Shown: positions 3,003 through 35,196 of the stretch, piece by piece | Position numbering within the stretch: position 1 is the stretch's first letter | How the letters are laid out: every line of letters begins with the position of its first letter | Assembly (NCBI GenBank): GCA_964562105.1 | Contig: CAZLRP010000003.1 | Location: forward strand, 15,718 to 65,937 | Source of the DNA: an uncultured Candidatus Saccharibacteria bacterium | GTDB taxonomy: Bacteria; Patescibacteriota; Minisyncoccia; Phycocordibacterales; GWA1-40-21 | Direction: 5' to 3' | Length of the DNA: 50,220 bases | Notes under the pieces: model-generated | Told to the model about the DNA's origin: nothing | Seen by the model: the letters and a program-made list of their open reading frames with translations, nothing else | Databases searched by the model: none | Position numbers and translations under genes: made by a program

Positions 3003-3427
3003 CCGCCTCTCTTTGTTGTGAAGACGGTTTGTTTGCCGGTCAGGGAAAAGGTTACTGACAGCTTTTTTTGCGAAGGTGAGACCTTCGAAAGTTTTTAACA
3101 CAGAAAAATGCTTTTGTATAGTCTTGTTTGTTTTTGGGGCAGGTATAAAATCATTGCAGACAAATCCAATTCATAATTCAGAAAAAAGTTTTGGTTTTTA
3201 CAAATGTATTTTATATTAAGATTGAGTGGTCGAATTGATCAATCTCTTTTTAGTGTATATTTAGTAAAATGTGTTGTGGAGTTAAGAAAGCGATGAATTG
3301 TAGTTTCTACTTTGGACGCTTGGACTACAAGGAGCTAGTAGCGTAACCGGTCTTTTGTTGGGATCGGTATTTTTATTTTGTATTTTTATTAACCTTCGTA
3401 TGGATTAGGACTTTAAAAAGCAAATGA

Positions 3428-3826: not shown

Positions 3827-4888
3827 ATGAAAAAAATATTATTAAGTTTGTCAGTTATAGCAATAGTGGGAGTTATTGCAGTTGGTGCAACCAGAGCATT
3901 GTTCTCTGATACAGAGACATCAACTGGAAATACATTCACAGCCGGAACAATTGATATTTCAATTGATCAGACAAATCCATGGACAAAGAGTTATAACATC
4001 GGTGACTTGAAACCGGGAGAAACGGGTTATATCAACTTTGATATTTCAAACGTTGGAACAAATCCAGTCAATGTTTCCAAGAATTTAAGCGAATTTGTAA
4101 CAACTACTGGTTCAGTAGGATATACATGTGCTGGTGTTACTGCGGGTGTTTCTTCAGAACCAGAATGTGTAGCGGCACAAGCTAACTCTAGTAATGACGT
4201 AAATGATGTTCAAACTAAGATTATTTATGACTTGAGCGTAGAAGTTTATAACTCAGCAGGCACAAAAATTTGGTGGCAAGCAATTTACACTGGTGCCGAG
4301 AATAAAAGCCTAGCTGATATTTACGGAAGTGGACAGTATGTTGCACTCGGTATGATTCCAGCTGGAGGACATATGAAAGTCACTCAAAGCTATCACTTTA
4401 ATTCAAATGCAGGTAATGAATATCAGGGGGATACATTATCATTTAAGATGACCATTAATGGTGAACAACTACCTCAAGGCGAAACTGGTATAACAACCGT
4501 TGCTTTGGAAAATAAAGTACAAGGAACAAATAGTATTTGGGATATTGTACAGGGTGATAGTATAGATGGAACTTTAAGCTATAAGGTTCAAAGCCCAACG
4601 TTTGATTATACTTTCACTGGTAAAGTAGCGGCTACAGACAACTACACATTGATTTATGTTGGTACTACAAATGATTATCCAGGCGTAGGAAGTAAAGTTC
4701 TTGGAACAGGAAGTTTTGTTGCAGGAACCCCACTTACAATTAGTGGATCGGTTAATATTGGTGCAAGCATTACCAATGGAAAGGTTTGGTTGATCCCAAC
4801 CAGTTCTTACAATGGCAGTATAATGACATCATGGCCAGCTTCAAATATCTTGTTTGAAACAGGATTAATCAATTACACAAAAATTTAA
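3827..4888 (+). CDS. SipW-cognate signal peptide protein, TasA/CalY (camelysin-like) family with a C-terminal extra domain
   Basis: N-terminus ..VGAT/RALFSDTETSTGNTFTAGTIDI, then LKPGETG; C-terminal GNEYQGDTLSFKMTINGEQ of the TasA-like core. Confidence 0.85.
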   Translation: MKKILLSLSVIAIVGVIAVGATRALFSDTETSTGNTFTAGTIDISIDQTNPWTKSYNIGDLKPGETGYINFDISNVGTNPVNVSKNLSEFVTTTGSVGYTCAGVTAGVSSEPECVAAQANSSNDVNDVQTKIIYDLSVEVYNSAGTKIWWQAIYTGAENKSLADIYGSGQYVALGMIPAGGHMKVTQSYHFNSNAGNEYQGDTLSFKMTINGEQLPQGETGITTVALENKVQGTNSIWDIVQGDSIDGTLSYKVQSPTFDYTFTGKVAATDNYTLIYVGTTNDYPGVGSKVLGTGSFVAGTPLTISGSVNIGASITNGKVWLIPTSSYNGSIMTSWPASNILFETGLINYTKI

Positions 4889-5083: not shown

Positions 5084-5132
5084 TAATCAAAGAAACAAAA
5101 TTAATTTTATGAAAAAAGGCATAAAAAAAGAT

Positions 5133-6923
5133 ATGAAAAAAATAATTATCAGCTTGTGCATTATTGCTGTTGTGGCGGTGGTTGCTGTTGGTACTACTCA
5201 CTCCTATTTTTCTGATACCGAAACAAGCAATAATAATATTATTCAAACAGGTACAGTTGATGTAGATATTGATGGACAAAATCCTTGGACTGGCAAATTT
5301 GATTGGGAAAATATCAGACCAGGCGACACCAAAGAAATAACTTTTGTAATACACAATATTGGTACTTATCCGATTAAACTTTGGAAAATTATTAAAAATT
5401 TAACTACCGAAGAAAATGGAATCGCTGGGCCAGAACAAGACTGGTATACCGATAATAATGTCGGAGTCGCCAAGAATGACATTGATACGGCGATGGTTTA
5501 TGAAATGTATGTTGATGGTCAGATTGCTGTTGAAAAAGAAGCCGGAATCACACTGGATAAAATTAAAAATTATTATATGAATTTGGTGAAATTGGATACG
5601 GCGACAGACCCAAGCTATACCGGTCCGAATCCAAATGGCAGTGGGATATTAAACCCAGGAGGTTCGGTAACGGTTGTTCAGAGATATCATTTTAAAGAAG
5701 ATACCGGCAATTGGGCTCAAAGCGACAAAATGATTTTTGATATAGAAATTTTAGCACAGCAAGTCAGTGCGCCAGAACCAGTGAAGCAGTTGTCTTTTAT
5801 AAACAATAAAAATGTATTAGATAACAGTTGGAGCACGATAGCGGACAGTAGGGTTGGGCTTTTGAAATATGATTCAATAGCGCAAACTTTCAATTATAAT
5901 TTTCTTGGAGTTGGGCTTAGTCCTGCTACAAATTATTGTTTGATTTATTCCAAAGATCCTTGGACTGGAGGGGAAAAGATTTTAATTGACAAAGGTATGT
6001 CAGATGCGAATGGAAAAGTAAGTTTGATAGGCTCAATGGATACTGGTGATTTGCCAAATGCTGATGATGGTAATTATCCAACCGGAGCAAAAATTTGGTC
6101 TTTACCCTGTTCTAGCTCAGGCTATAATGAAAGTAGCCAAAGTGTCGGTTGGCCACCGCAAAATGATTGGCTTTTTGATAATTGGCCAGGGTTTATAAAA
6201 TATACGAATGGAGAAACGCCAGCTGAGCCAGCTGATGATCCACCTGCTAGTGGCAGTCAAACCATAATTATAAACGAATTAGGTGGCGATATTGGCAATC
6301 AATATGGTTATCAATTTGGAGGATATCCAACTGCAAATGTAACTTTTACATACAATACGCCAGCTCCCAATAAATTAAGCGGAACTATTACAGCTACGGG
6401 GTTGAAACCTTACGCAACCTATCAGGTAAAATTTATTGGTGATCCAACTAATGAAATGGCGAATGAATACATTGGATATAAAGGCAGATGGACAGTAACC
6501 AATGTCTCTTGTTCTGGTTCAGGGTGCAACAGAACAGATGCTCAATATGAAGCTAATAAAATTTCGCATGCTGAAACTATCGCTGGATATTTGGTTTGGG
6601 ATTTTTTCACGGCTGATTCAAGCGGTAATGCGACAAAAGTTGTGGAAACTGCAAACAGTTATCATGTGCTTTGGTCTGGTGGCGGAACATGCAATACGGT
6701 TGCCAATACTTATTTGGCAAATTTGGATTCAGCGCATCCTACTATTAAATTTTCTCCCGCGGACAAAGTTGATGGAGAAATTGAACGTGGCACCTGTGGC
6801 GGTTTGACCTTGAATCCTGGTACTTATGATTTAAAAATGGTGTTGACCGAAGAATCGTTCCATCAAAGTCCAGGCACTTGGGCAGAAGTATTAATGAAAG
6901 ATATTAATTTTGTTATCAATTAA
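5133..6923 (+). CDS. SipW-cognate TasA-family protein with C-terminal extension domains (start probably 5133; track start 5109)
   Basis: ..VGTT/HSYFSDTETSNNNIIQTGTVDV; IRPGDTK; GNWAQSDKMIFDIEILAQQ; paralogous to 3827-4888. Confidence 0.85.
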   Translation: MKKIIISLCIIAVVAVVAVGTTHSYFSDTETSNNNIIQTGTVDVDIDGQNPWTGKFDWENIRPGDTKEITFVIHNIGTYPIKLWKIIKNLTTEENGIAGPEQDWYTDNNVGVAKNDIDTAMVYEMYVDGQIAVEKEAGITLDKIKNYYMNLVKLDTATDPSYTGPNPNGSGILNPGGSVTVVQRYHFKEDTGNWAQSDKMIFDIEILAQQVSAPEPVKQLSFINNKNVLDNSWSTIADSRVGLLKYDSIAQTFNYNFLGVGLSPATNYCLIYSKDPWTGGEKILIDKGMSDANGKVSLIGSMDTGDLPNADDGNYPTGAKIWSLPCSSSGYNESSQSVGWPPQNDWLFDNWPGFIKYTNGETPAEPADDPPASGSQTIIINELGGDIGNQYGYQFGGYPTANVTFTYNTPAPNKLSGTITATGLKPYATYQVKFIGDPTNEMANEYIGYKGRWTVTNVSCSGSGCNRTDAQYEANKISHAETIAGYLVWDFFTADSSGNATKVVETANSYHVLWSGGGTCNTVANTYLANLDSAHPTIKFSPADKVDGEIERGTCGGLTLNPGTYDLKMVLTEESFHQSPGTWAEVLMKDINFVIN

Positions 6924-17523: not shown

Positions 17524-18867
17524 ATGTACAGGGAATTAAAATCACCAATTGCCGTTCAATTAGAGATGACAACAAAATGTAATCACAAATGTATCCACTG
17601 TTACAATCATTGGAGGAAAGATTCCGTACGAGATAAGACCCTCAGTGAAGATGATGTAAAAAATATCATTGAAAATCTGAGAAAAAGTGAAGTTCCCAGC
17701 TTACTGATTACGGGTGGAGAACCGATGCTTTATCCTGATTTGATGCTCAAGGCACTTGAAATTGGGAAAAGTGCTGGGTTGGAGTATTCCTTAAATTCTA
17801 ACCTGACACTTGTAACTCCAGAAATTGCAAAAAAGTTAAAGAAACTAAAAATTGGTGTGTTAACGTCAATTTTATCTTTTGACAGAAATGTGCATGATAG
17901 TATAACAACGTTAGATGGTTCTTTTGATAGACTCATTGCGGGAGTTAAGCTCATGCAGAGGTATGGAGTTTCAGTTAGTGCGAATATGGTGGTCATGCAA
18001 AAAAACATAGACCAAATTTATGAGACAGGTAAGTTTGTTCATGGTTTGGGCTTGTCGGGGTTTAGAGCAACGAAAGTTCACCCGGCACAGGGATCATCAG
18101 ATTTCGAGAAAATAAAACTTCCACCAGAAAGAATTGTTGAAATTTTTGACAACCTTATCAAATTAAGAGAAGATTTCGGGCTCAAGGTTGATTCTCTAAC
18201 CACATACCCAACATGTCTTGTAAAAGACATGGATCGTTATGGTCAATTTATCCTAAGGCGAAGTTGTAGTGCTGGTAAAACTGGTTGTACAATAGGTGCT
18301 GATGGACAAGTTCGGCCATGTGGACACTCTGACGATAATTATGGCAATGCTACCGAAGAATCACTTCTTCAGATTTGGCCAAGATTGAAAAAGTGGAGAG
18401 ATGATTCTTTATTACCAAAAGAGTGTAAGGAATGTAAGTATGTTATCGAATGTAGTGGCGGTTGTCGCATGGATTGCAAATTCTATGGAAAAATCGATTC
18501 AATGGATCCATATGCGACGGGAAAAGATTTTAATTACATTCCTCAAAAACCAGAAAAAGTTGTACTTCTCCATTCTGAAACAGAGTTGATTATTGATCCG
18601 ACTCTTCGTTTTAGGCTAGAGAAATTCGGGTCGGTATTGATTGTTGAAAACAATGTCACATCAATAATTAGCCCAGATTCCGCAAAGTTGTTGAAGGAAC
18701 TAATGGGCACAATTTTTACACTGAATAGTATTTCCAATAAATATGGACTCGACGTGGAAATTGTGCGTAATTTTTTTACAAGCTTACGCAAGCAAAAAGT
18801 TATCTGTTTGTCGGATAAAATCTCTAAAGTAAAAGAAAGGAGGTTGTGTTATGGCAAAAACTCTTAA
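17524..18867 (+). CDS. Radical SAM/SPASM domain peptide maturase with a probable C-terminal RRE (PqqD/MftB-like) domain
   Basis: CNHKCIHC (CxxxCxxC); ITGGEP; SPASM CSAG..C..GADGQVRPC and CKEC-x5-C-x3-C; C-terminal LRFRLEKFGSVL followed by helices. SD AAGGAGG. Confidence 0.9.
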   Translation: MYRELKSPIAVQLEMTTKCNHKCIHCYNHWRKDSVRDKTLSEDDVKNIIENLRKSEVPSLLITGGEPMLYPDLMLKALEIGKSAGLEYSLNSNLTLVTPEIAKKLKKLKIGVLTSILSFDRNVHDSITTLDGSFDRLIAGVKLMQRYGVSVSANMVVMQKNIDQIYETGKFVHGLGLSGFRATKVHPAQGSSDFEKIKLPPERIVEIFDNLIKLREDFGLKVDSLTTYPTCLVKDMDRYGQFILRRSCSAGKTGCTIGADGQVRPCGHSDDNYGNATEESLLQIWPRLKKWRDDSLLPKECKECKYVIECSGGCRMDCKFYGKIDSMDPYATGKDFNYIPQKPEKVVLLHSETELIIDPTLRFRLEKFGSVLIVENNVTSIISPDSAKLLKELMGTIFTLNSISNKYGLDVEIVRNFFTSLRKQKVICLSDKISKVKERRLCYGKNS

Positions 18868-21152: not shown

Positions 21153-22436
21153 ATGAGTAAATCAAGAGAACTAGGAATAGAATTTTATAAAGAAAAATTA
21201 CCAAACAATTCTTCTATTTTTTTATATAAAAGAAAGGGTTTTCCGATAAACATACAGATTGTTTTTAATGCAGGTGCTCGTTTTGGTAAAAAACCGGGCA
21301 TATCGCATTTTTTGGAACATTTATTACTAGCTGGATCAAAAAAATATCCAACAAAAGATGCCCTCTGTGTTCCATTAGAAAATATTGGTGGATCAATAGG
21401 TGCGTCTACTGGCTCAGAATTTTTATACATCAATGTAAATATAGCGGACAAAGAAGATATAGACATTGCTATTGATGTGATCAATGAATCGGTTAATAAT
21501 TCGTTATTTGATAGTAAAACCATCGAAAATGAAAGAAAAGCCATTCTTTCTGAAATCGGTAATAGAAAATCAAACCCCTCATCAAATGTTTGGGATATTT
21601 ATAAAAAAGTATTTTTTCAAGAAACTATTCTTCAAAATTCAGGCTTGGGCACGTCGGAGATAGTTTCTAGTACCACAAAAGAAGAACTTGTTGATGAATA
21701 CTCAAGACTTATAAAAGAGGGACGCCCGACTATAATGGTAAGTGGGGATGTTGATATAGATTCTTTGAAGGATAAATTTAGTATTATTTTAAATGGGACA
21801 AAAGATATTTTTTCAGGTCTTATCGGAACAAGTTTACCTATAGTAAAAAACAAACGTATTGAGGTTGAAGAATATACAGCTGATCAAGTTCATATGATTT
21901 TAGGTTTTCGAACAGGCATACATTCTATTGTAGATAATATTCCAGCACATATATTATCTATGTTGCTGGCTAAAGGCAGAACTTCTATATTAATGTCTGA
22001 ATTGAGATACAAAAATGGTTTGATATATAATATTAGTGGTTCGTCTAATTATTTTGCTGATTATTCAATGTGGCTTATAAATACATCAACAGATAAGAAA
22101 AATGTTCAAAAAGTAATAGATCTCATTCTTTTGGAAATAAATAAAATTAAAAATAATGGTATTACTGAAGATCAATTGAATTTTGTTCGGTCAAAATCAA
22201 TTAAATCACTAAAATTTTCATTACAAACATCCGCATCTTTAGTTAATTCTAATATAATTGAAGTGATGATGAATCAAAATGATTCTTATACATTGGATGA
22301 TTTTGTTACTGATATGGAAAAAGTAACAGTAGAAGATATTTTAAAATGTGCTCAAAATATATTTAATACGGATAATTTTTTTATCGCACTTTGTGGCAAT
22401 ATAGAAGAAAAGGATATCAAAATAAATATATCTTAA
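21153..22436 (+). CDS. M16 family (pitrilysin-like) zinc peptidase
   Basis: Inverted zinc motif GISHFLEHLL (HxxEH), ERKAILSE, and C-terminal ELRYKNGLIYNI. Confidence 0.9.
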   Translation: MSKSRELGIEFYKEKLPNNSSIFLYKRKGFPINIQIVFNAGARFGKKPGISHFLEHLLLAGSKKYPTKDALCVPLENIGGSIGASTGSEFLYINVNIADKEDIDIAIDVINESVNNSLFDSKTIENERKAILSEIGNRKSNPSSNVWDIYKKVFFQETILQNSGLGTSEIVSSTTKEELVDEYSRLIKEGRPTIMVSGDVDIDSLKDKFSIILNGTKDIFSGLIGTSLPIVKNKRIEVEEYTADQVHMILGFRTGIHSIVDNIPAHILSMLLAKGRTSILMSELRYKNGLIYNISGSSNYFADYSMWLINTSTDKKNVQKVIDLILLEINKIKNNGITEDQLNFVRSKSIKSLKFSLQTSASLVNSNIIEVMMNQNDSYTLDDFVTDMEKVTVEDILKCAQNIFNTDNFFIALCGNIEEKDIKINIS

Positions 22437-23838: not shown

Positions 23839-25092
23839 CTATGACATTACTAAAACTTGTGCAGTATCATCTGAATCCTTTTTAGAAAAAACTGTATGAC
23901 CTCTTTTTGTTTCAATTATTAATTTTCCTTTATATTTAGGATAATTGTTTGTCACAATTTTTTCTACCAAGCCATAATTCTCAACTATATTTAAACCAGC
24001 TTTGGGGCATAAATTAATTAAAAGAGTACTCGTGATTGATATAGTAGACCATACATTATAGTTATTTTTGCATAAGTTGGCAACTAGTTCAACTATTTTT
24101 TCAGAATTAACGGCTGAGGTCGCATAGAGCCTTTCTCCATCAATTAAACAACATGAAAGAATATTTCCTTCATTATCTAATTCATAAGCTACCGAATTAA
24201 TTTTATCATTGAATAGTTTGGTCGGATCAAATCTTTTACCAAACTGTGAAGCGACAAAAGCAGATAATTTAGTTTTTACATCAGGAACTAGTTCTTCAAC
24301 TGAGCTTGAGAAAAATCCATCAGAAACTTTTAATTTTTGTTTTTTTATATTTAGATCATCAAAAATACCTTTTGTGTCGTAACCTTCAAACAGATCCAAT
24401 ATTTGTCCCGAGTTAATATTTCCAAACAGTGGTTTAAGTTTATGGCGTCTGTGCGGATTTTTTGCAAAAAAATCAATAACCATAGGTAATGATTCATTAA
24501 TTATATTCATCGTTTCTTCCGAAACTTTTAAATCAGGGATTCTGGATATTTGCTTAAGTGCACTAATAATTTTCATTGGATCATTCTTTGCCAGCTCAGC
24601 GTCCATGAATCTAAATTCCTTGTTCATAATTTCTAACTGAAAATCAGGGTTTAATATTTTTAATGAGTCTAAATCAAAAGCACAGCAACTTAAATTTGAA
24701 TCAGCAGTTGCAATAAGCTCAGAAACCGTTTTTTCTCCAATACTAGCAACCTGTATTTCTTTTCCATTCAACATATAATTAAAAACATTAGCATCTTTTT
24801 TAAAGGAGTATTTTCCTTCGACGAATTTTACATCTTCCTCCCAATCCATTTCAGTAAACCCTAAGCTTTCCAGATTTTTTTTAATATCTTCCACTGACAT
24901 TCTAGACATAAAATCGAAGTCAGCTGGATATTTATGAAGAATAATATCTCTAACTGCACCACCGATTAAAAAACTGTTATTTCCAAATATTTTTATAGAT
25001 TCATTAATTGGCAGTAATTCTATGATTTTGTTCTCGACTCTTGAAATTTCCCCCGTTTCTTTCGGGTCTAAATTTGAGGGTATTTTTTCCAT
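23839..25092 (-). CDS. Divergent class II tRNA nucleotidyltransferase/poly(A) polymerase-family protein with an unknown C-terminal domain
   Basis: IGGAVRD..YPADFDF (motif A); the later RRDFTIN and DPLRxxR motifs are degenerate. Confidence 0.7.
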   Translation of the reverse strand: MEKIPSNLDPKETGEISRVENKIIELLPINESIKIFGNNSFLIGGAVRDIILHKYPADFDFMSRMSVEDIKKNLESLGFTEMDWEEDVKFVEGKYSFKKDANVFNYMLNGKEIQVASIGEKTVSELIATADSNLSCCAFDLDSLKILNPDFQLEIMNKEFRFMDAELAKNDPMKIISALKQISRIPDLKVSEETMNIINESLPMVIDFFAKNPHRRHKLKPLFGNINSGQILDLFEGYDTKGIFDDLNIKKQKLKVSDGFFSSSVEELVPDVKTKLSAFVASQFGKRFDPTKLFNDKINSVAYELDNEGNILSCCLIDGERLYATSAVNSEKIVELVANLCKNNYNVWSTISITSTLLINLCPKAGLNIVENYGLVEKIVTNNYPKYKGKLIIETKRGHTVFSKKDSDDTAQVLVMS

Positions 25093-27709: not shown

Positions 27710-27934
27710 ATGGCTAAAAAGAAGTTTTCTCGTAAAGAAAGATCAGATGCTGATGGCTTTTTTGTGTCAGGCCCCACTTTTATTACAAACAGAAGAACGT
27801 GCGTTTCTGTTAAGATAATGAGAAGTGCTGTCAAAGTTAGGCACACAAAGGATCACGGACGTATTCTGACTTTTAGCCACCCCGAATGGAAAGCGTTCAT
27901 CAAGGGGGTGAAAGACAATGAGTTTGATTTGTAA
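27710..27934 (+). CDS. DUF397 (BldB-like) domain protein
   Basis: CVSV...VKVRHTKD.G..LTFSHPEWKAFIKGVKDNEFDL matches the DUF397 pattern CVEV..V.VRDSK..G..L.F...W..F..GVK..EF. SD GAAAGGAGGT, promoter TTGACT-N17-TACACT, terminator at about 27947-27989. Confidence 0.8.
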   Translation: MAKKKFSRKERSDADGFFVSGPTFITNRRTCVSVKIMRSAVKVRHTKDHGRILTFSHPEWKAFIKGVKDNEFDL

Positions 27935-28004
27935 TAACTCATTAGAATATCCACAACCTTTGTAATTTAGAGGTTGTGGATGTTTTTTTATATTAATAAT
28001 ATAT

Positions 28005-28902: not shown

Positions 28903-29409
28903 ATGAACAAACAAAATATCGGTTATATTGCGGCAGATTTTCAAGAAAAAGATAAAATAGAAATCATAAATTGGTCAAAAACCATACGAGATAATGATTT
29001 ATACATTACTTCAATTGATGGAAAAACCAAAGGGGGTCATATGACAGACGATTTACATTTAACCTTCTTTTATGGTCTTGATGAGGATCTTATTAATAAA
29101 AATGATGTTCAAGATTTTATCAATACCATTAATCTAGAAAGCATAGAAATAGGTAAAATTGATATTTTTCCAGTAGCAGATCAAACTTGTGAAGTTTTAT
29201 ATTTATCTGTAGAAGATCAACTTGGTAAGATTAGAAAATATAATGAAACATTTAAAAAATTTCCGCATTTTACTGAATTTCAAAAAAAAGAATTTATACC
29301 TCATATCACAATTGCATTTGTAAAAAAGGGATTTGATGTAAATAAATTTACTTATACTGGTTCAAAAATTTTAAATATCAAAGAAATAATTCATCATTTT
29401 AAAATTTAG
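28903..29409 (+). CDS. 2H phosphoesterase superfamily protein (two HxT motifs)
   Basis: DLHLTFFYG and FIPHITIAF; N-terminal GYIAADFQE. Confidence 0.8.
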   Translation: MNKQNIGYIAADFQEKDKIEIINWSKTIRDNDLYITSIDGKTKGGHMTDDLHLTFFYGLDEDLINKNDVQDFINTINLESIEIGKIDIFPVADQTCEVLYLSVEDQLGKIRKYNETFKKFPHFTEFQKKEFIPHITIAFVKKGFDVNKFTYTGSKILNIKEIIHHFKI

Positions 29410-29457: not shown

Positions 29458-29604
29458 GTTATTTTATTAAATTAAATATACATAATTACAAGAATTTGAC
29501 ATATTTATAATTTACTTGTATTATCAAATGTAGAAGTATAGGGAAGAAGATAAATTCTATCCTGTTGAAAAATAGCGCCAAAGCGCAAAAAAAGGAGGTT
29601 CATC

Positions 29605-30699
29605 ATGTTATGTCCATCTATTGTTAGTATTCCAATTACACCCCGTAGTACCCCAAAGCTTGGACTTATGCTCATTCCATTTATCATGGATGTCATAGGT
29701 AATAAGATGGGACTTGATAAGGTATTGGCGCTCAATGTTAGTGGTTCTAAATTATTCAATGACAATGTTGAAAGTTGTGTTCAAGAATATTTTCAAGCCA
29801 ATTCTGGGCTGGGAATTGCTCCAGATTATATCTGGAGAGATGATCAGAAAGAGAATATCTATTGGATAAATATTCTATTTCAACAACTTGTAGCTGATGG
29901 GTATGTATTTAGAGATGAGAGACTCATATTACGTTGTCCTTGTCGTGTGGTAGAAACTTTGGCATTAGCTGATAATATCTCAAATACAAGGAGATTGTAT
30001 GAACGAGTAGGCAATGTTGTACATTGTAAAATATGTGGAGGAGCAATACTTCAAGAAAAAGATAATGTTTATCTATTTCAAGTCCCAGATTTGTTAATCG
30101 ATTGGCACATTACTCCAGTTTTTACCAAAATGGAAATCGTTAATTTAGCAAAGAAATTTGCTGGAGTTCAACTTCTTATTTCTAGAACAAGACCTTCTGC
30201 AATTCCTCTTTGGACAGGGAAAGAGTACATTTTTTTAGATGTTGATTTTGGTTGGCAATTATTTCTACCGATATTGAGTCGTCTCGGTCATAAACCAGAG
30301 GTATTTATTGGTAGCCAAAAAAATCTATTCGGATGCTATCTTTCAATGCTATTGTCATATCTCATAGACAAGACAACTCCGGAACTTATTGTTCCTGGAT
30401 ATTGTGTGACAAAAACAATGGAAGATAAATTCATAACCGATTCTTTTTTAGAATGGAATGAATCATCCGCAAGAATTTTTTTGGCCTGTCACTCTACTTT
30501 TCGAAAGAAAGAGATTGGTTTTACTGCTTCACTACTTCCATTAATAAAAAGAATTTTACGGAAGCCACATGTTAGAGTCTTGTGTCAAAAACGTTTATCT
30601 TTATCTGAAGCAATAAATCAGTGTGACGGTTCTGTTGTTCGTAAGCTTCTTGCAACAGATAAATATGAACATGAAATATTTAGCGGTATGATACGGTAA
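29605..30699 (+). CDS. Class I aminoacyl-tRNA synthetase (MetRS-like) catalytic-domain paralog with degenerate HIGH and no KMSKS
   Basis: Colinear with MetRS: IP..TPKLGLM (LP..IHLGHM), MDV (ADV), GLGIAPDY..EN..L..DGYV, CPC/CKICG knuckle, LLISR (DISR), FIG, PGY. SD AAGGAGGT; promoter TTGACA-N17-TATTAT. Confidence 0.7.
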   Translation: MLCPSIVSIPITPRSTPKLGLMLIPFIMDVIGNKMGLDKVLALNVSGSKLFNDNVESCVQEYFQANSGLGIAPDYIWRDDQKENIYWINILFQQLVADGYVFRDERLILRCPCRVVETLALADNISNTRRLYERVGNVVHCKICGGAILQEKDNVYLFQVPDLLIDWHITPVFTKMEIVNLAKKFAGVQLLISRTRPSAIPLWTGKEYIFLDVDFGWQLFLPILSRLGHKPEVFIGSQKNLFGCYLSMLLSYLIDKTTPELIVPGYCVTKTMEDKFITDSFLEWNESSARIFLACHSTFRKKEIGFTASLLPLIKRILRKPHVRVLCQKRLSLSEAINQCDGSVVRKLLATDKYEHEIFSGMIR

Positions 30700-30730
30700 C
30701 TATTTCAATTACAAAAAGGAGGTAATAGCT

Positions 30731-31468
30731 ATGGATTCACTTAGTAGGTTTGTTGCAGAATGCGGATTTATTTTTAAGAAAAATTTACTCTGCATTCTTC
30801 TTCTCGGATCGACACAACGCGATGATAATAATCCATTCTCAGACATTGATATTGTTATTATTATCAAGACGATGGATACTAATCAAGTAGTGCAACTAAG
30901 ATCAATTACCAGATCATTAGATAAACTTCTTGATTGTTCAATCTTGTGTAAAGATGAGCTTTCGGATAACTCAAATGATTTCTGTATAGGTTCACACGGA
31001 TGCTATCAACTTGAGCTTGTATTAAAAAAAGCCAAATGTATCTGGGGAGAAAATATACTTTTATCAATGGAGAGTCCAACACAACACAAGATCAGAGTCA
31101 GTATTGCTCGTAAGGTTATTGAATACACATGGTGGATTAGAAGAATGTTTATTGAATCAAATAGAGAGAGGTCACTTGAGATGAATTATAATCTCAATAG
31201 TCGCCTTATCAAAATGATTCGAGATATTCTCTATCTTCACGGTAATACTAATAGTATAATTGACTCTGTTGAAAATATTCTAAAAATATTTATTTTAGAA
31301 TATGCTGAGATGTTTACAGAAACTGAACGATTGACGATAATCGGTCTCGGCAAAAGTAGATATATTAACACTAACACATCAAACATGAGTGATGATTATT
31401 TATTGTTAAGATATTCTATAGCCAATAAAATTCATAAGAGAGTGACTGAGATTATCAAAAGCGAGTAA
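30731..31468 (+). CDS. Pol-beta superfamily nucleotidyltransferase (minimal NTase plus helical C-domain)
   Basis: LLGST..DDNNPFSDIDIVII (GS + DxD); SD AAGGAGGT; palindrome at 31457-31488 after the gene. Confidence 0.8.
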   Translation: MDSLSRFVAECGFIFKKNLLCILLLGSTQRDDNNPFSDIDIVIIIKTMDTNQVVQLRSITRSLDKLLDCSILCKDELSDNSNDFCIGSHGCYQLELVLKKAKCIWGENILLSMESPTQHKIRVSIARKVIEYTWWIRRMFIESNRERSLEMNYNLNSRLIKMIRDILYLHGNTNSIIDSVENILKIFILEYAEMFTETERLTIIGLGKSRYINTNTSNMSDDYLLLRYSIANKIHKRVTEIIKSE

Positions 31469-31504
31469 CTTGTAAGTTACTCGCTTTTATATTATTCTAT
31501 ATTT

Positions 31505-32254
31505 ATGATATTTAGAGGAAAATTTGAGGATATTGTTTTTGAGTTCGGTGTTGTGGATAACGCTAAATGCACAGTTATTATTTGTGATGGTCTTCCCTCC
31601 GTTCCAAAACAAAAAGAACTTCTTACTTATTTGAATAATCATGGATGTAATGTTTTTTATCCTCGTTATCGTGGAACGTGGGAAAGCGGTGGAGAATTTC
31701 TCGCACAATCACCATCTAATGATATTATTGATTTCGTGGAATTTGTTAAGATGGGAGAAATTACCGAACTTTATGGTAACAAGACTTTTTCTGTAAAAGG
31801 CCCAATACACCTTATTGGATCAAGTTTTGGCGGGTCAGTAGCGCTTTCCTCAGTAGATGATTCTAATGTAGATAAAATTGTAGTATTTTCTCCAATTATT
31901 GACTTTAAATTACAAAATAATAATGGAACAGAACAAGATTTAAACTTGCTTGGAAAATTTATAACAAAAGCCTTTGGTAATGGTTATAGATATAAGAATG
32001 AGAATTGGGAGTTAATGGTGTCTGGTAAATTATTTAATCCACCTGAAATGATAGAATCTAATAGGACAAAAGATATATTAATTGCTTATGATTTATTAGA
32101 CGACACGATTGATTATCAAAAAATAATTGATTATTCTTCAAAAAATAATATCAAGAATATTCTCTCAGAGAATACTGGGCATCTAAGTTTTTCAAAAATT
32201 CCACAAAATATATGGGCACAGGTTTTTGATTTTCTTTTCTCGGATAAAAATTAA
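31505..32254 (+). CDS. Alpha/beta hydrolase (S9-like)
   Basis: CDGLPS, YPRYRGTWES, IGSSFGG, DDTI, GHLS. Confidence 0.8.
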   Translation: MIFRGKFEDIVFEFGVVDNAKCTVIICDGLPSVPKQKELLTYLNNHGCNVFYPRYRGTWESGGEFLAQSPSNDIIDFVEFVKMGEITELYGNKTFSVKGPIHLIGSSFGGSVALSSVDDSNVDKIVVFSPIIDFKLQNNNGTEQDLNLLGKFITKAFGNGYRYKNENWELMVSGKLFNPPEMIESNRTKDILIAYDLLDDTIDYQKIIDYSSKNNIKNILSENTGHLSFSKIPQNIWAQVFDFLFSDKN

Positions 32255-32278
32255 TAGAATTACCGGTGAAATAAAATT
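32255..32278 (+). repeat. Degenerate kinase 3'-end repeat, copy 4
   Basis: TAGAATTACCGGTGAAATAAAATT vs TAGAACTGCCGGTGGAATAAGATT (20/24); reads ELPVK* vs ELPVE*. Confidence 0.55.
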
Positions 32279-32286
32279 AATTATAA

Positions 32287-34110
32287 ATGGAAAATAAAAC
32301 AATAGACGATAATAAGAATAGACTTTCGTTTTGGGATTTTTTGGCCACACTAAAGTGGCTCTTTGCTTTTAATTTTAAATTATCTCCTTGGATTGCAACA
32401 TCACAGGTTATAGTTAGAATATTTTTAGATACCAGCCCGTTGCTTAATGCTTTTATTTTTGCCAAACTTTTGGACAAAATAATTAAGATTGCTAGCAGTT
32501 CAAATTCTAATCTCGATGACATTGCTCCATTATTGGGACTTTTGCTTATTTTAAATTTGGTAATTTCTGCCTTAAATTCAGCTTACACTTATGTATCTAA
32601 TATGATGATGCAAATGTCCAACTATAAAGTACCGATAATTTTAGCCAAACATATCAATTCACTTGGAATTCAAACGTTGGAAAATCCTGAGGTTGTTAAT
32701 AAAATCCAAAGAGCAAGAGAAACTATTAATTCTATAAATAATGATTTCGAAAGGATGATAATATTTGTTGCCAGAGTCATAGTATTGATTTCCGCATCAA
32801 TTATAGTTATAAAAATAATGCCACTTATAGCTCTAATTATTGTTGTTGCTATCATTCCTGAGCTTATTTGTAATAGAGTATACATGAGAAAAAATTGGGG
32901 TTTTTGGCATTCTGAAACGGAAAATAGTCGCAGGGCTTTTTCTGCCACAGGATCATTAAATGAAGTGACAAATTTGCAAGAAATAACGATTACCTCATCT
33001 TTTCGATTACTAAGTAATGTTTTTACTAATTTTACGAATTATTATATAGCTGGGCAAAGAAAAATCATGAAAAGCTGGCAGTTTTTTGGTTTTTTCTTAG
33101 GTTCAATAACAGATATTGCAAGTATTTTTGGCTATTTCTCAATTTTAAAAAATTTATTTTATAAATTAATATCTGTTGGTGATGTGACTTTCCAAATGAG
33201 AGCACTAGATATGTTTACCAATAATTTCTCGATGGTTGTTAATGGTTTTGGCGGTCTTTATGAGCGTTCTATCAGAATTAATGAAGTTAAAATCGTTTTT
33301 GATATGAAACCAATGGTAGAGGATGGCAATATAAAATTACCAAAATTAGAAATAACTCCTAGTATTAAATTTGAGAACATTAGTTTTAAATATCCCGGTG
33401 CCGATAGTTATGTTATTAAAAATCTTAATCTTGACATCAAATCCGGAGAAAAAATAGCTATAGTTGGTGAAAATGGCGCAGGTAAAACAACTTTGGTAAA
33501 ACTTTTGAGCAGGTTCTACAAAGTAGATGATGGATCTATTTTATTAAATGATATAAATATTAATAATATAGAGATAGAAAGCTGGTATAAAAATTTAGGA
33601 GTATTATTTCAAGATTACAATACTTATCCTTATTTGACGCTTAAAGAAAATATTTATCTGGGAAAGTCTGATGAACCTTTGGATATGTCTAAAATTCAAG
33701 TTGCAGCACAACAGGCAAATGTTAACTCTTTTATTGAAGGTTACAAAAATGGCTATGATCAGGTTTTGAGTGAAAAATACAAGGGAGGTACACGTCCGAG
33801 CACTGGGCAATGGCAAAAAATAGCTATAGCTAGATTTTTCTATCGTAATTCACCGGTAGTAGTGTTTGATGAACCAACCGCTTCAATAGATGCTGTTTCT
33901 GAGGCCGAAATTTTTGGCAAGATTTATGATTTCTTCACAGACAAAACGGTCATAATTATTTCTCATAGATTTTCTACAGTTCGCAATGCTGACAAGATCT
34001 ATGTTTTGGATAAGGGAGAAATAATTGAAAGTGGAAACCATGATGAACTTATAAAATTAGAAGGAAAATATTATAAAGCATTCAATATTCAAGCAAAAGG
34101 ATATAAATAG
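32287..34110 (+). CDS. ABC exporter, fused TMD-NBD
   Basis: Multi-TM N-half; GENGAGKT; variant signature PSTGQWQ; VFDEPT; SHRFSTV. Confidence 0.9.
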   Translation: MENKTIDDNKNRLSFWDFLATLKWLFAFNFKLSPWIATSQVIVRIFLDTSPLLNAFIFAKLLDKIIKIASSSNSNLDDIAPLLGLLLILNLVISALNSAYTYVSNMMMQMSNYKVPIILAKHINSLGIQTLENPEVVNKIQRARETINSINNDFERMIIFVARVIVLISASIIVIKIMPLIALIIVVAIIPELICNRVYMRKNWGFWHSETENSRRAFSATGSLNEVTNLQEITITSSFRLLSNVFTNFTNYYIAGQRKIMKSWQFFGFFLGSITDIASIFGYFSILKNLFYKLISVGDVTFQMRALDMFTNNFSMVVNGFGGLYERSIRINEVKIVFDMKPMVEDGNIKLPKLEITPSIKFENISFKYPGADSYVIKNLNLDIKSGEKIAIVGENGAGKTTLVKLLSRFYKVDDGSILLNDININNIEIESWYKNLGVLFQDYNTYPYLTLKENIYLGKSDEPLDMSKIQVAAQQANVNSFIEGYKNGYDQVLSEKYKGGTRPSTGQWQKIAIARFFYRNSPVVVFDEPTASIDAVSEAEIFGKIYDFFTDKTVIIISHRFSTVRNADKIYVLDKGEIIESGNHDELIKLEGKYYKAFNIQAKGYK

Positions 34111-34216
34111 ATAACTTGCATTTTGTCCGATAATAGAGCAAAATTATGCATTAAGTGTTATTAATTAAATATCCCAGTCAAATAAAAATACTTTGACGGG
34201 ACAAGAACAAAATATT

Positions 34217-34738
34217 ATGGGAAATTTTGATCAAGGTAGAGGAAATCGTTTTGGTGGAGGTAATAGAGGTGGTGGAGGCAGACCCAGTTTTGGTGGTGGA
34301 AGGCCAAGTTTTAGAAGAGAAGACAGAGGTCCTGTTACTATGACCCAGGTTACTTGTGATGAATGTAAGAAGCCTTGTGAAGTTCCTTTTAGACCAACAG
34401 CGGGCAAGCCGGTGTATTGCAATGACTGCTTCAGAAATCACGGAGGTGGAAGCCAGGATAGAGGACCAAGAAAGGATTTCAATAGACCAGCTCCAAGATC
34501 TAGCTTCGGAAGCAATGACCCTAGTCAAATAAAAAGCCAATTTGACGGGGCAGGAGGCGGAAATGATATAAAGAAACAGTTGGAATCGTTAAATGTAAAA
34601 TTAGACAAGCTCATTTCTTCTATAGAAAATCTTTCTCAAGGGAAATCTGCTCAAAAAACAGAAATCGTGAAAAGTATGACAGTTTCTACTCCAAAGAAAG
34701 AAGTCAAGAAATCTCCAAAGAAAAAAGTTAAAAAATAA
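34217..34738 (+). CDS. CxxC-x17-CxxC zinc-ribbon protein with an RG-rich N-terminus
   Basis: CDEC..CEVPFRPTAGKPVYCNDCF; ATG at 34217 preferred; terminator at 34791-34822. Confidence 0.85.
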   Translation: MGNFDQGRGNRFGGGNRGGGGRPSFGGGRPSFRREDRGPVTMTQVTCDECKKPCEVPFRPTAGKPVYCNDCFRNHGGGSQDRGPRKDFNRPAPRSSFGSNDPSQIKSQFDGAGGGNDIKKQLESLNVKLDKLISSIENLSQGKSAQKTEIVKSMTVSTPKKEVKKSPKKKVKK

Positions 34739-34836
34739 TTTATTAAAATTTTATGAAAATATACGAGCAGGATTGGTAAAAATAAAACATAAAGGCGGTT
34801 TGGCGGAGCCAAACCGCCTTTTGTATTTTATTATTG

Positions 34837-35196
34837 TGTCATTCCCGCGTGGGCGGGAATCCAGTGTGAAATTATAATTCTAAACTTAAATCTTTCCATT
34901 CTGGATTTTCTTTTTCAATCAACCTTCTTTTCCAGAGCCTATTCCATTTTTTTATACATTTTTCTCTTGCGATTGCACTTCCAATATTCGTTGTTTGTTC
35001 ATAATATACAAGCATTTTTATATTGTATTTTTTGGTAAAACCATCAATTAAGCTATTTTTGTGTTCACATACTCTTCTCAATAAATCGTTTGTGACTCCT
35101 GTATATAATGTTCCATCACGCTTGCTTGCTAAAATATAAACGTAATAATACTTCATAAAACCATTATACTGGATTCCCGCCTACGCGGGAATGACA
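34837..35196. mobile_element. GIY-YIG nuclease gene bracketed by 29-bp inverted palindromic repeats (putative small selfish element)
   Basis: Left TGTCATTCCCGCGTGGGCGGGAATCCAGT (34837-34865); right ACTGGATTCCCGCCTACGCGGGAATGACA (35168-35196); 1 mismatch. Confidence 0.7.
34872..35156 (-). CDS. GIY-YIG nuclease (YhbQ/UPF0213-like)
   Basis: YYVYILAS..GTLYTGVT..RRV.EH..AIAREK.IKKW.R.WK..LIE..NP.W.DL. Confidence 0.9.
   Translation of the reverse strand: MKYYYVYILASKRDGTLYTGVTNDLLRRVCEHKNSLIDGFTKKYNIKMLVYYEQTTNIGSAIAREKCIKKWNRLWKRRLIEKENPEWKDLSLEL

Follow-up and report, generated by a model that had tools for sequence, protein, structure and literature searches.

What can a protein do that keeps the frame of methionyl-tRNA synthetase (MetRS) and lacks its ATP-transition-state motifs, and why should it be encoded next to a nucleotidyltransferase? 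The question is raised by four genes, here called A to D, in a 50,220-nt stretch of an uncultured Candidatus Saccharibacteria genome (GenBank assembly GCA_964562105.1, contig CAZLRP010000003.1, positions 15,718 to 65,937 of the forward strand), the whole of which is referred to as the window. The genes are tightly packed, all on the + strand, in a stretch of low GC content (~31%). Genes A, B and C (encoding a MetRS-derived pseudo-synthetase, a Pol-beta nucleotidyltransferase and a serine hydrolase) constitute a conserved, self-contained three-enzyme module, and they are real and functional genes. As a tentative reading, preferred here at a chance that we put somewhat below even and argued by analogy, A would be a pseudo-synthetase whose task is either to bind a ligand resembling an adenylate or to transfer an aminoacyl group, the nucleotidyltransferase would act on a nucleoside-type small molecule, and the esterase would reverse the step.

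Protein A was identifiable solely by structural and profile-profile methods. No match was obtained in Pfam or NCBIfam (E ≤ 0.1), PHROGs or PADLOC, and phmmer and hmmsearch comparisons with the PDB returned none, even when the family profile was used. An AlphaFold2 model was built from a 21-sequence alignment (predicted local distance difference test score, pLDDT, 88.3; predicted template modelling score, pTM, 0.88) and compared with the PDB by Foldseek. The best 50 matches were all MetRS (best E 4e-14, template modelling (TM) scores 0.59-0.70, 13-16% identity), and no cyclodipeptide synthase was among them. Against a viral structure library, MetRS ranked first (1e-12), followed in order by LeuRS, CysRS and IleRS. 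A profile of 80 A sequences was aligned by hhalign with E. coli and metagenomic MetRS over 347 columns at 97.1% probability (E 1.2e-10), and with a single MetRS at 74% probability (E 2.7e-5). The fold of A is confirmed by these comparisons as class Ia and MetRS-like, despite the null sequence searches. A preliminary description of this DNA had aligned the 364-aa protein with MetRS by eye, and the motifs on which it relied are all present: the zinc-knuckle cysteines CPC...CKIC (C111, C113, C141 and C144), LLISR (190-194), FIG (234-236) and PGY (264-266). In the metagenomic MetRS the zinc knuckle reads CPCC...CKIC, and the dyads C111xC113 and C141xxC144 of A line up with it. Shared with MetRS (PF09334) are the Rossmann domain, the CP insertion, the Cys4 zinc knuckle, the ISR(x)R motif, an 'xxLDxxxGx' pocket segment and a stem-contact fold with an RYY-type arginine. 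A descends from MetRS and has kept its catalytic-domain scaffold together with the zinc-knuckle insertion.

What A has lost was established by a residue map against MetRS, which agrees with the earlier statement that HIGH is replaced by KLGL, that KMSKS gives way to KTMED and that no more than ~85 aa are left in place of the anticodon domain. K18-L-G-L21 of A lies opposite H21-L-G-H24 of MetRS, and both histidines are lost across the A family. KMSKS (MetRS 332-336) falls in a deletion, MetRS 332-338 standing opposite an alignment gap, and the local sequence of A is VTKTMEDK (KTMED at 270-274). The protein ends opposite MetRS residue ~424, so that the anticodon-binding bundle is essentially absent, and there were no Anticodon_1 or Anticodon_3 Pfam matches and no match to PF09334. 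A has thus lost both ATP-transition-state motifs and the anticodon domain. In the pocket, N44 stands opposite D52, the residue with which MetRS binds the amino group of methionine, and the segment F210-L-D212-V213-D214-F-G-W217 stands opposite W253-L-D255-A256-P257-I-G-Y260 of the methionine-pocket wall, which replaces W253 by F, P257 by D and Y260 by W; H301 of MetRS is lost. S193-R194 of A correspond to S232-R233 of the MetRS 'DISR' motif, and R290 corresponds to R356. Because the methionine-pocket positions are now polar or acidic (N44, D79, D212, D214, W217) and the ATP motifs are gone, A is predicted from its residues to be incapable of activating methionine in the manner of MetRS, and cannot be a methionine-activating synthetase.

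The only MetRS paralogs previously described in non-translational chemistry are the cupin-associated MetRS-like domains of hydrazine synthetases, which have intact adenylation motifs, make aminoacyl-AMP, are fused to or adjacent to a cupin and are linked to an N-hydroxylase (PMC2922099, PMC8664883, PMC12376268). A was considered as a paralog of this type and this was ruled out: the hydrazine-synthetase proteins retain their adenylation residues, as judged from the description in PMC2922099, whereas those of A are not intact. No cupin or N-hydroxylase was found fused or adjacent to A in the window or among the 13 close contexts listed below, and a cupin occurs only beside the distant locus L040.

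The loss of HIGH, KMSKS and the anticodon domain, with no Pfam match, is also what might be expected if A were a functionless, decaying MetRS fragment lying in a coincidental gene order. Distribution and constraint refute such a dead-gene reading, to which we assign practically no chance. A word-indexed search yielded 21 close relatives, 353-377 aa in length, to which a profile query with the word-indexed tool contributed only four more proteins, and a scan of GTDB genomes with the close-family alignment returned 3 loci. In an exhaustive profile search of 1.84 billion representatives, 340 A-family clusters (50% identity) were found at E ≤ 1e-3 and 126 at E ≤ 1e-30, with nearly all members 340-400 aa long; full-length orthologs with invariant residues are spread over hundreds of clusters. 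In a set of 80 A sequences, sharing 15-58% identity with the window protein, no change was seen in any of the four cysteines or in D212, and P10, N44, D79, E117, P171, S193, R194, D214, W217 and P265 are at least 90% conserved. The ratio of non-synonymous to synonymous divergence (dN/dS) in the closest pair of loci was 0.08 for A, 0.13 for B and 0.055 for C, and between more distant loci the non-synonymous divergence of the three genes was nearly equal (e.g., 0.246/0.240/0.244 for A/B/C). The low dN/dS and equal divergence indicate a functional, co-inherited unit rather than a decaying fragment, and a near-consensus promoter, a Shine-Dalgarno sequence, conserved partners and natural fusions (below) also speak against decay. 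A is under strong purifying selection, with the frame of the adenylate site and the zinc-knuckle insertion strongly constrained.

The nearest relatives of A and B are labelled Candidatus Paceibacterota, Nomurabacteria, Tagabacteria and Patescibacteria, and by these labels the window would most likely be assigned to a CPR/Patescibacteria genome. All A-family proteins are recorded as 'hypothetical protein': no source gives a functional name, neither Pfam nor NCBIfam has a model for the family, and literature searches brought up no account of it. No relatives were found in the viral contigs, phage records or plasmid records searched. The family is widespread in metagenomes yet undescribed in the libraries and literature searched, while the theme of synthetase paralogs recruited elsewhere is already known. 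One 3.9-kb contig labelled as a Nanoarchaeota metagenome-assembled genome (L011, JAHKAF010000056.1) has the A-B pair behind a TTGACA promoter and a GGAGG ribosome binding site; with these bacterial-type signals and closest relatives in Patescibacteria, the contig is probably misbinned.

A is always partnered by a Pol-beta nucleotidyltransferase, sometimes as a fusion. Thirteen independent close-subfamily contexts were compared (the window, L001, L003, L004, L006, L007, L008, L009, L011, L013, L015, L016/17 and L045), and A and B were adjacent in 13/13, with gaps of -4 to 31 nt. Natural A+B fusions were found in three clusters: P0035, in which residues 386-611 match the B profile at E 6e-53, P0039 and P0105. 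The pairing noted earlier in the window alone thus recurs in every informative relative, and because of the fusions and the invariant adjacency A is taken to work together with the nucleotidyltransferase. The B family is as small as the close A subfamily (41 proteins). We know of no characterised aminoacyl-tRNA synthetase-like system that has an obligate nucleotidyltransferase partner.

The catalytic motifs of B (Table 1) were accompanied by a Pfam NTP_transf_2/Polbeta match, and its helical C-terminal half is highly conserved (61% mean column identity), with many invariant Arg and Lys residues. B was modelled alone, apart from A (pLDDT 91.4). The best Foldseek matches were AAD(9)/ANT(9) and AadA/ANT(3'')(9), over the full length (TM 0.63-0.67, 11-14% identity), followed by weaker matches to ANT(4'), the Hailong nucleotidyltransferase HalB, MntA and LinB, in that order; the alignment with MntA was restricted to a core of ~120 aa. 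Scores against curated models were low: 12.7-19.3 bits against the NCBIfam ANT models (cut-offs 350-545) and 21.9 bits against the MntA model (cut-off 60), and in PADLOC-DB 2.0 only a generic MNT-type match to PDC-S09 and PDC-M05A was seen. With AadA/ANT(3'')(9) and AAD(9), B shares a Pol-beta nucleotidyltransferase domain plus helical domain and a GS...DxD core over its full length, and as modelled it has the predicted architecture of enzymes that adenylylate a hydroxyl group on a small molecule. The helical domain of AadA binds aminoglycosides through acidic residues. That of B is instead rich in invariant Arg and Lys, and B is always coupled to A.

The MntA and HalB matches invite another explanation, a protein-AMPylation switch of the type VII toxin-antitoxin kind, in which adenylylation by B would activate or silence A, and C would either strip off the added group or have no part in the system. 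There is precedent: MntA-type nucleotidyltransferases are described that AMPylate their HEPN partners, as are fused MNT-HEPN forms (PMC13000451). We regard such a switch as very improbable for this locus: in comparison with MntA-HepT there is no HEPN gene or domain, B (245 aa) is a two-domain, ANT-like protein and not a minimal MNT, A has no recognisable toxic activity, and the invariant residues of the A pocket favour ligand binding or catalysis over the part of a passive target.

Gene C was found 3' of B wherever the contig extends, and its Ser107/Asp199/His226 triad is invariant. By sequence, its nearest solved relatives are small carboxylesterases (cinnamoyl and feruloyl esterases, Est1E, FphH). 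In one clade a shorter YdeN-type alpha/beta hydrolase stands in place of C; in a distant group, subfamily 2, a Peptidase_S51 protein occurs instead of C in 13/14 contexts; and the operon of L019 holds a Peptidase_S66 gene, possibly a further occupant of this place. A serine hydrolase is thus part of the unit and nearly always present. These hydrolases are non-homologous and of kinds that typically act on aminoacyl or ester bonds; the slot seems to need a serine hydrolase of the peptidase or esterase kind, of interchangeable fold. Of the two further partners proposed in the preliminary description, the hydrolase and an exporter, the hydrolase proved conserved and the exporter did not. No homolog of D adjoins the cassette at any of the other loci, where generic ABC ATPase matches were seen only elsewhere on the contigs (L001/L002, L004/L005, L035), and D is not a conserved component of the unit.

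The same description had likened the locus to microcin C (MccA/MccB/MccF), with which it has in common the concept of an aminoacyl-nucleotide product accompanied by a hydrolase (a serine peptidase in microcin C) and by an exporter. The likeness did not hold: the hydrolase of this locus is an esterase of the alpha/beta fold, conservation does not extend to the exporter, no precursor open reading frame (ORF) is conserved upstream of the cassette, and no conserved MccB/ThiF gene adjoins it, ThiF occurring only in a separate downstream cluster in L008.

With resistance enzymes (AAD(9), AadA, ANT(4')) as the closest structures of B, an esterase next to it and an MsbA-type exporter in the window, the genes might alternatively detoxify a synthetase-targeting, aminoacyl-adenylate-mimic antibiotic, which A would bind like the target and present, B would adenylylate as ANT or Lnu enzymes do, C would hydrolyse and the ABC pump of the window would export. 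MccF-type S66 and other peptidases cleave aminoacyl-nucleotides, and the S66 gene of L019 would fit this. We nonetheless think detoxification improbable. The A pocket has diverged at the methionine- and ATP-binding positions and would make a poor decoy, the exporter is not retained, B lies far under every curated ANT threshold, and the family is old and diversified, with partners of a biosynthetic type (kinases, a phosphoribosyltransferase, radical-SAM enzymes).

The expression signals of the cassette were examined across the close-subfamily loci (Table 1 gives those of the window). The Shine-Dalgarno sequence AAAGGAGG precedes both gene A and gene B, and the promoter-like P1 has the top score within 27.5-35.3 kb, with 11/12 matches. 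A TTGAC[ACT] hexamer 40-80 nt 5' of A, followed by an A/T-rich, -10-like region, is present at 10/12 loci; of the exceptions, L001 has TTGCAC and at L045 none was seen. No conserved small ORF or precursor peptide, Rfam element or riboswitch was found in the leader of A at these loci. A strong hairpin with a U tract coincides with the stop codon of B at 11/11 loci examined, its stems varying between loci by compensatory changes around a loop with an invariant CTTG. A and B are therefore predicted to form a bicistron closed by a conserved terminator hairpin, in agreement with the two-gene, Shine-Dalgarno-led operon with a GS/DxD nucleotidyltransferase that had been proposed before.

Table 1. Genes and predicted expression signals of the cassette and gene D, in window coordinates.
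Feature	Position	Strand	Remarks
Promoter P1, TTGACA-17-TATTAT	29496..29524	+	Promoter-like; would drive the A-B bicistron
Gene A, MetRS-derived pseudo-synthetase, 364 aa	29605..30699	+	Rossmann fold, CP insertion and stem-contact fold kept
Gene B, Pol-beta nucleotidyltransferase, 245 aa	30731..31468	+	Two domains, AadA/ANT(9)-like; GS27, D38xD40, D68
Terminator-type hairpin, 14-bp stem and T run	31457..31488	+	Overlaps the stop codon of B
Putative promoter P2, inside the hairpin	31470..31498	+	-35 TTGTAA 31470-31475, 17-nt spacer, -10 TATTCT 31493-31498
Gene C, alpha/beta-fold serine esterase/aminopeptidase-like hydrolase, 249 aa	31505..32254	+	GSS107FGG, D199, H226
Gene D, MsbA-type ABC exporter, 607 aa	32287..34110	+	Neighbour in the window genome only

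The hairpin appears to have a second role. Seven 'long-C' loci aligned cleanly (the window, L001, L003, L004, L006, L008 and L013). In none of them is C preceded by a Shine-Dalgarno sequence, and in each the TTG of the loop and a TAnnnT hexamer are 16-17 nt apart, the hexamer ending 6-9 nt 5' of the ATG of C (6 nt for the -10 of P2 in the window). At L045, where the hairpin did not align, C is likewise without a Shine-Dalgarno sequence and a TATAAT stands 6 nt before the ATG. From these alignments the A-B terminator hairpin appears also to hold a promoter for a leaderless C mRNA; since P2 lies inside the terminator, A-B and C would be expressed independently. A terminator that doubles as the promoter of a leaderless gene would be a compact regulatory device, of interest by itself.

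More distant subfamilies retain the pairing and surround it with other enzymes. Subfamily 2 (L021-L038, from metagenomes, GC 22-27%) has a larger Pol-beta nucleotidyltransferase next to A in 14/14 contexts, immediately upstream except in L036, where it lies one gene further, beyond the S51 gene. The operon order is large nucleotidyltransferase, A, RlmN/Cfr-like radical-SAM enzyme, Peptidase_S51. The radical-SAM adenine methylase (E 6.5e-43) is present in 9/14 of these contexts and is without the N-terminal ~70 residues of RlmN, which form the RNA-binding domain; the gene is a 93-aa remnant in L031 and L032 and absent in L021, L029, L035 and L037. In other distant members a nucleotidyltransferase-like gene lies directly downstream of A (L041, L043, L044, L019) or nearby (L046). 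A is fused to a type I phosphoribosyltransferase in P0117/L019 and L044 and to a HAD phosphatase in P0159, and in the 879-aa fusion P0156 it is followed by 550 C-terminal residues that match nothing. A ribokinase-like PfkB follows the A+B fusion in L018, L019 has a glycerate kinase, NUDIX genes occur in L029 and L037, and L046 has an SDR. A sulfotransferase-nucleotidyltransferase fusion lies beside A in L036 (3409-5307), and a cupin, a histidine phosphatase and a uridine-kinase-like protein follow A in L040 (1182-2797). Genuine synthetases stand directly after A in two cases, MetRS in L039 (1305-2984) and IleRS in L033 (3239-6343), and a genuine IleRS lies two genes upstream of the A+B fusion in L018; these cases are too few for significance. 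Taken together, the accessory enzymes look like a tailoring set for a small molecule that contains a ribose, nucleoside or nucleotide.

Precedents for such chemistry exist among repurposed synthetases. In ascamycin biosynthesis, AcmF is a truncated AlaRS-like protein without the residues for ATP binding and alanine activation, in which a nucleoside-type molecule takes the place of the adenylate; it aminoacylates a nucleoside sulfamate using Ala-tRNA, and the alpha/beta hydrolase AcmE cleaves the alanyl group (PMC12945691). SbzA of SB-203208 biosynthesis is an IleRS-like transferase that depends on aminoacyl-tRNA (PMC12945691), and cyclodipeptide synthases are Rossmann proteins derived from class I synthetases that have lost the ATP motifs, use pre-charged aminoacyl-tRNA and have no anticodon domain (PMC2922099; PMC12945691). 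AcmF and AcmE resemble A and C in combining a synthetase fold that has lost activation with a reversing hydrolase. The resemblance is one of analogy, A not being homologous to AcmF, which is a class II, AlaRS-derived protein that retains its tRNA-recognition domain. SbzA is a full-length IleRS. Neither AcmF nor SbzA has an obligate Pol-beta nucleotidyltransferase partner, and both come from Streptomyces antibiotic clusters, while cyclodipeptide synthases differ from A in being related to TyrRS and TrpRS, in lacking the CP/zinc insertion, in their length of 230-300 aa and in having no nucleotidyltransferase partner. The combination found here is new: a MetRS-derived protein with both ATP motifs lost, coupled to a Pol-beta nucleotidyltransferase and an interchangeable serine hydrolase.

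On the preferred reading, B would nucleotidylate a nucleoside- or sugar-like small molecule with a nucleoside triphosphate, or otherwise supply an adenylate-type species. A would hold an adenylate-like ligand in its vestigial aminoacyl-adenylate site, in the place of methionyl-AMP, and catalyse or direct an aminoacyl transfer, for which the donor would most plausibly be an aminoacyl-tRNA, as for AcmF, SbzA and the cyclodipeptide synthases. C would cleave the aminoacyl ester or amide and so undo the acylation, allow the product to be recycled or shield the cell, its level being set independently of A and B through the promoter inside the A-B terminator. The pathway would end in a metabolite of the aminoacyl-nucleotide or aminoacyl-nucleoside type. 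Aminoacyl-nucleotide or tRNA-dependent chemistry was part of the preliminary description, whose observations are borne out in the sequence and whose interpretation is partly supported; we infer such chemistry from the nucleoside- and sugar-type enzymes of the distant subfamilies and the AcmF/AcmE precedent.

Several points weigh against this reading. The case for the chemistry is built on folds, partners and analogy. Protein A is without an anticodon domain or a demonstrated tRNA-binding surface, and its isoelectric point (~8.9) is only mildly basic. With its many invariant Arg and Lys residues, the helical domain of B would also be suited to the 3' end of an RNA or to a polyanionic substrate. 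Partner nucleotidyltransferases of separate subfamilies can be aligned over the catalytic core alone (~48 columns), so that their orthology is not claimed and a single reaction is unproven. The accessory enzymes are found in distant subfamilies, at ~20% identity with the protein of the window, and may act on other substrates. Finally, several cassettes adjoin toxin-antitoxin or defence genes.

This last point, with the origin of A in a tRNA-binding enzyme, leads to the rival that we take most seriously, although we hold it unlikely: a tRNA-directed toxin, abortive-infection defence or RNA repair system. As an adaptor, A would then hold the acceptor end of a tRNA; B would extend the 3' end by nucleotides or AMP, in the manner of the MenT and AbiEii toxins, or rebuild it; and C would deacylate charged tRNA. 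The CP domain of MetRS contacts the acceptor stem, and A has kept the CP/zinc-knuckle module; subfamily 2 adds an RlmN/Cfr-like RNA adenine methylase; a 2H phosphoesterase gene lies just 5' of the window cassette; and a promoter of its own, as is putative for C, is an arrangement also seen for immunity genes. Among the neighbouring conflict genes are AbiEii in L008 (beside a cluster resembling those for ribosomally synthesized and post-translationally modified peptides, RiPPs), a SocA/Panacea toxin-antitoxin gene in L009, Fic, transposase, NERD and reverse transcriptase genes in L013, and HicAB and an NYN RNase in L015-L017. In L003 (7789-17104) the cassette is flanked by a tRNA-Ser gene and a serine recombinase, after which comes a type I restriction-modification system with an embedded Shedu (SduA_C) nuclease; this region looks like an integrated island.

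Against a tRNA-directed role stand the absence of the anticodon domain from A and the full-length match of B to small-molecule ANT enzymes, as opposed to its match to MntA over the ~120-aa core. The flanks of the cassette are unrelated from locus to locus, and many cassettes lie amid housekeeping genes (GrpE/DnaK, MurB/SecA or AspRS at some loci). The module is accessory and mobile, and mobility alone is no proof of a defence role. No tRNA gene is consistently linked to the cassette among the loci, PADLOC-DB 2.0 has no model that matches A or C, and no copies were found in the phage, plasmid and viral sequences searched. The kinases, phosphoribosyltransferase, phosphatases, sulfotransferase and SDR of the other subfamilies are ill-suited to an RNA substrate. 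The toxin-antitoxin or anti-phage alternative raised in the preliminary description thus drew nothing from PADLOC and stays as a rival.

A bolder form of the preferred reading is a 'split synthetase', in which the Pol-beta nucleotidyltransferase would perform the activation normally due to HIGH and KMSKS and hand the activated species to the MetRS-derived transferase, yielding metabolites under the control of the esterase. That the nucleotidyltransferase might stand in for the lost activation step had been suggested before; the present analysis found no direct support for it, and we consider the split synthetase doubtful. If it were true, the products would be a new class of aminoacyl-nucleotide or aminoacyl-nucleoside metabolites (an antibiotic, a signal or a salvage intermediate), made by ultra-small bacteria of the candidate phyla radiation, low-GC metagenome bacteria and some high-GC bacteria. 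MshC, the cyclodipeptide synthases, the hydrazine synthetases, AcmF and SbzA are repurposed paralogs each of which opened new enzymology, and A is the first MetRS-derived lineage in the present analysis that has lost both ATP motifs and yet is strongly constrained. Knowledge of the reaction of A-B would reveal a new aminoacyl-nucleotide-type synthesis, a conflict system of a new kind directed at tRNA or a novel logic of resistance, and would explain what a conserved accessory module does in Patescibacteria, a group with a largely obscure biochemistry.

Other features of the loci are recorded here as minor observations. RiPP-like clusters repeatedly land beside the cassette. In L008 (2937-6800) the cassette is followed by a 47-aa ORF, a 501-aa protein, ThiF and a nitroreductase, and the contigs L015 and L016/L017, syntenic in other respects, differ by an insertion right after C that holds a PqqD/radical-SAM/SPASM gene along with a 45-aa ORF and a gene for a methyltransferase.

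The flanks of the window cassette (the 2H phosphoesterase, an upstream hydrolase, the ABC exporter and a zinc-finger protein) do not recur near relatives. Directly 5' of the cassette (28903-29409) is the 168-aa, LigT-like 2H phosphoesterase, which matches phrog_755 'RNA ligase' (E 3e-8) and, weakly, Acb1 and AKAP7. On the other side, the gene at 34193-34738 encodes a Gly/Arg-rich protein that bears a treble-clef zinc finger (PF23477), and is followed by a perfect 14-bp bidirectional terminator (34791-34821) and a small GIY-YIG nuclease gene on the - strand (34872-35156). Further upstream, a small DUF397 protein (27710-27934) precedes a long hairpin (27944-27986); DUF397 is typical of actinobacterial Xre/DUF397 pairs, and the host is Patescibacteria-like. 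Elsewhere in the window are a radical-SAM/SPASM maturase-like gene (17524-18867), an M16 peptidase gene (21153-22436) and, on the - strand, a gene for a CCA-adding/poly(A)-polymerase-type nucleotidyltransferase (23839-25092). At 3277-3361 there is a cyclic-di-GMP-II riboswitch (59.5 bits; gathering score 53.5), downstream of which stand two camelysin-like (Peptidase_M73) genes (3827-4888 and 5109-6923), followed in turn by genes for a lamin-tail/LamG protein and a purple-acid-phosphatase-like protein.

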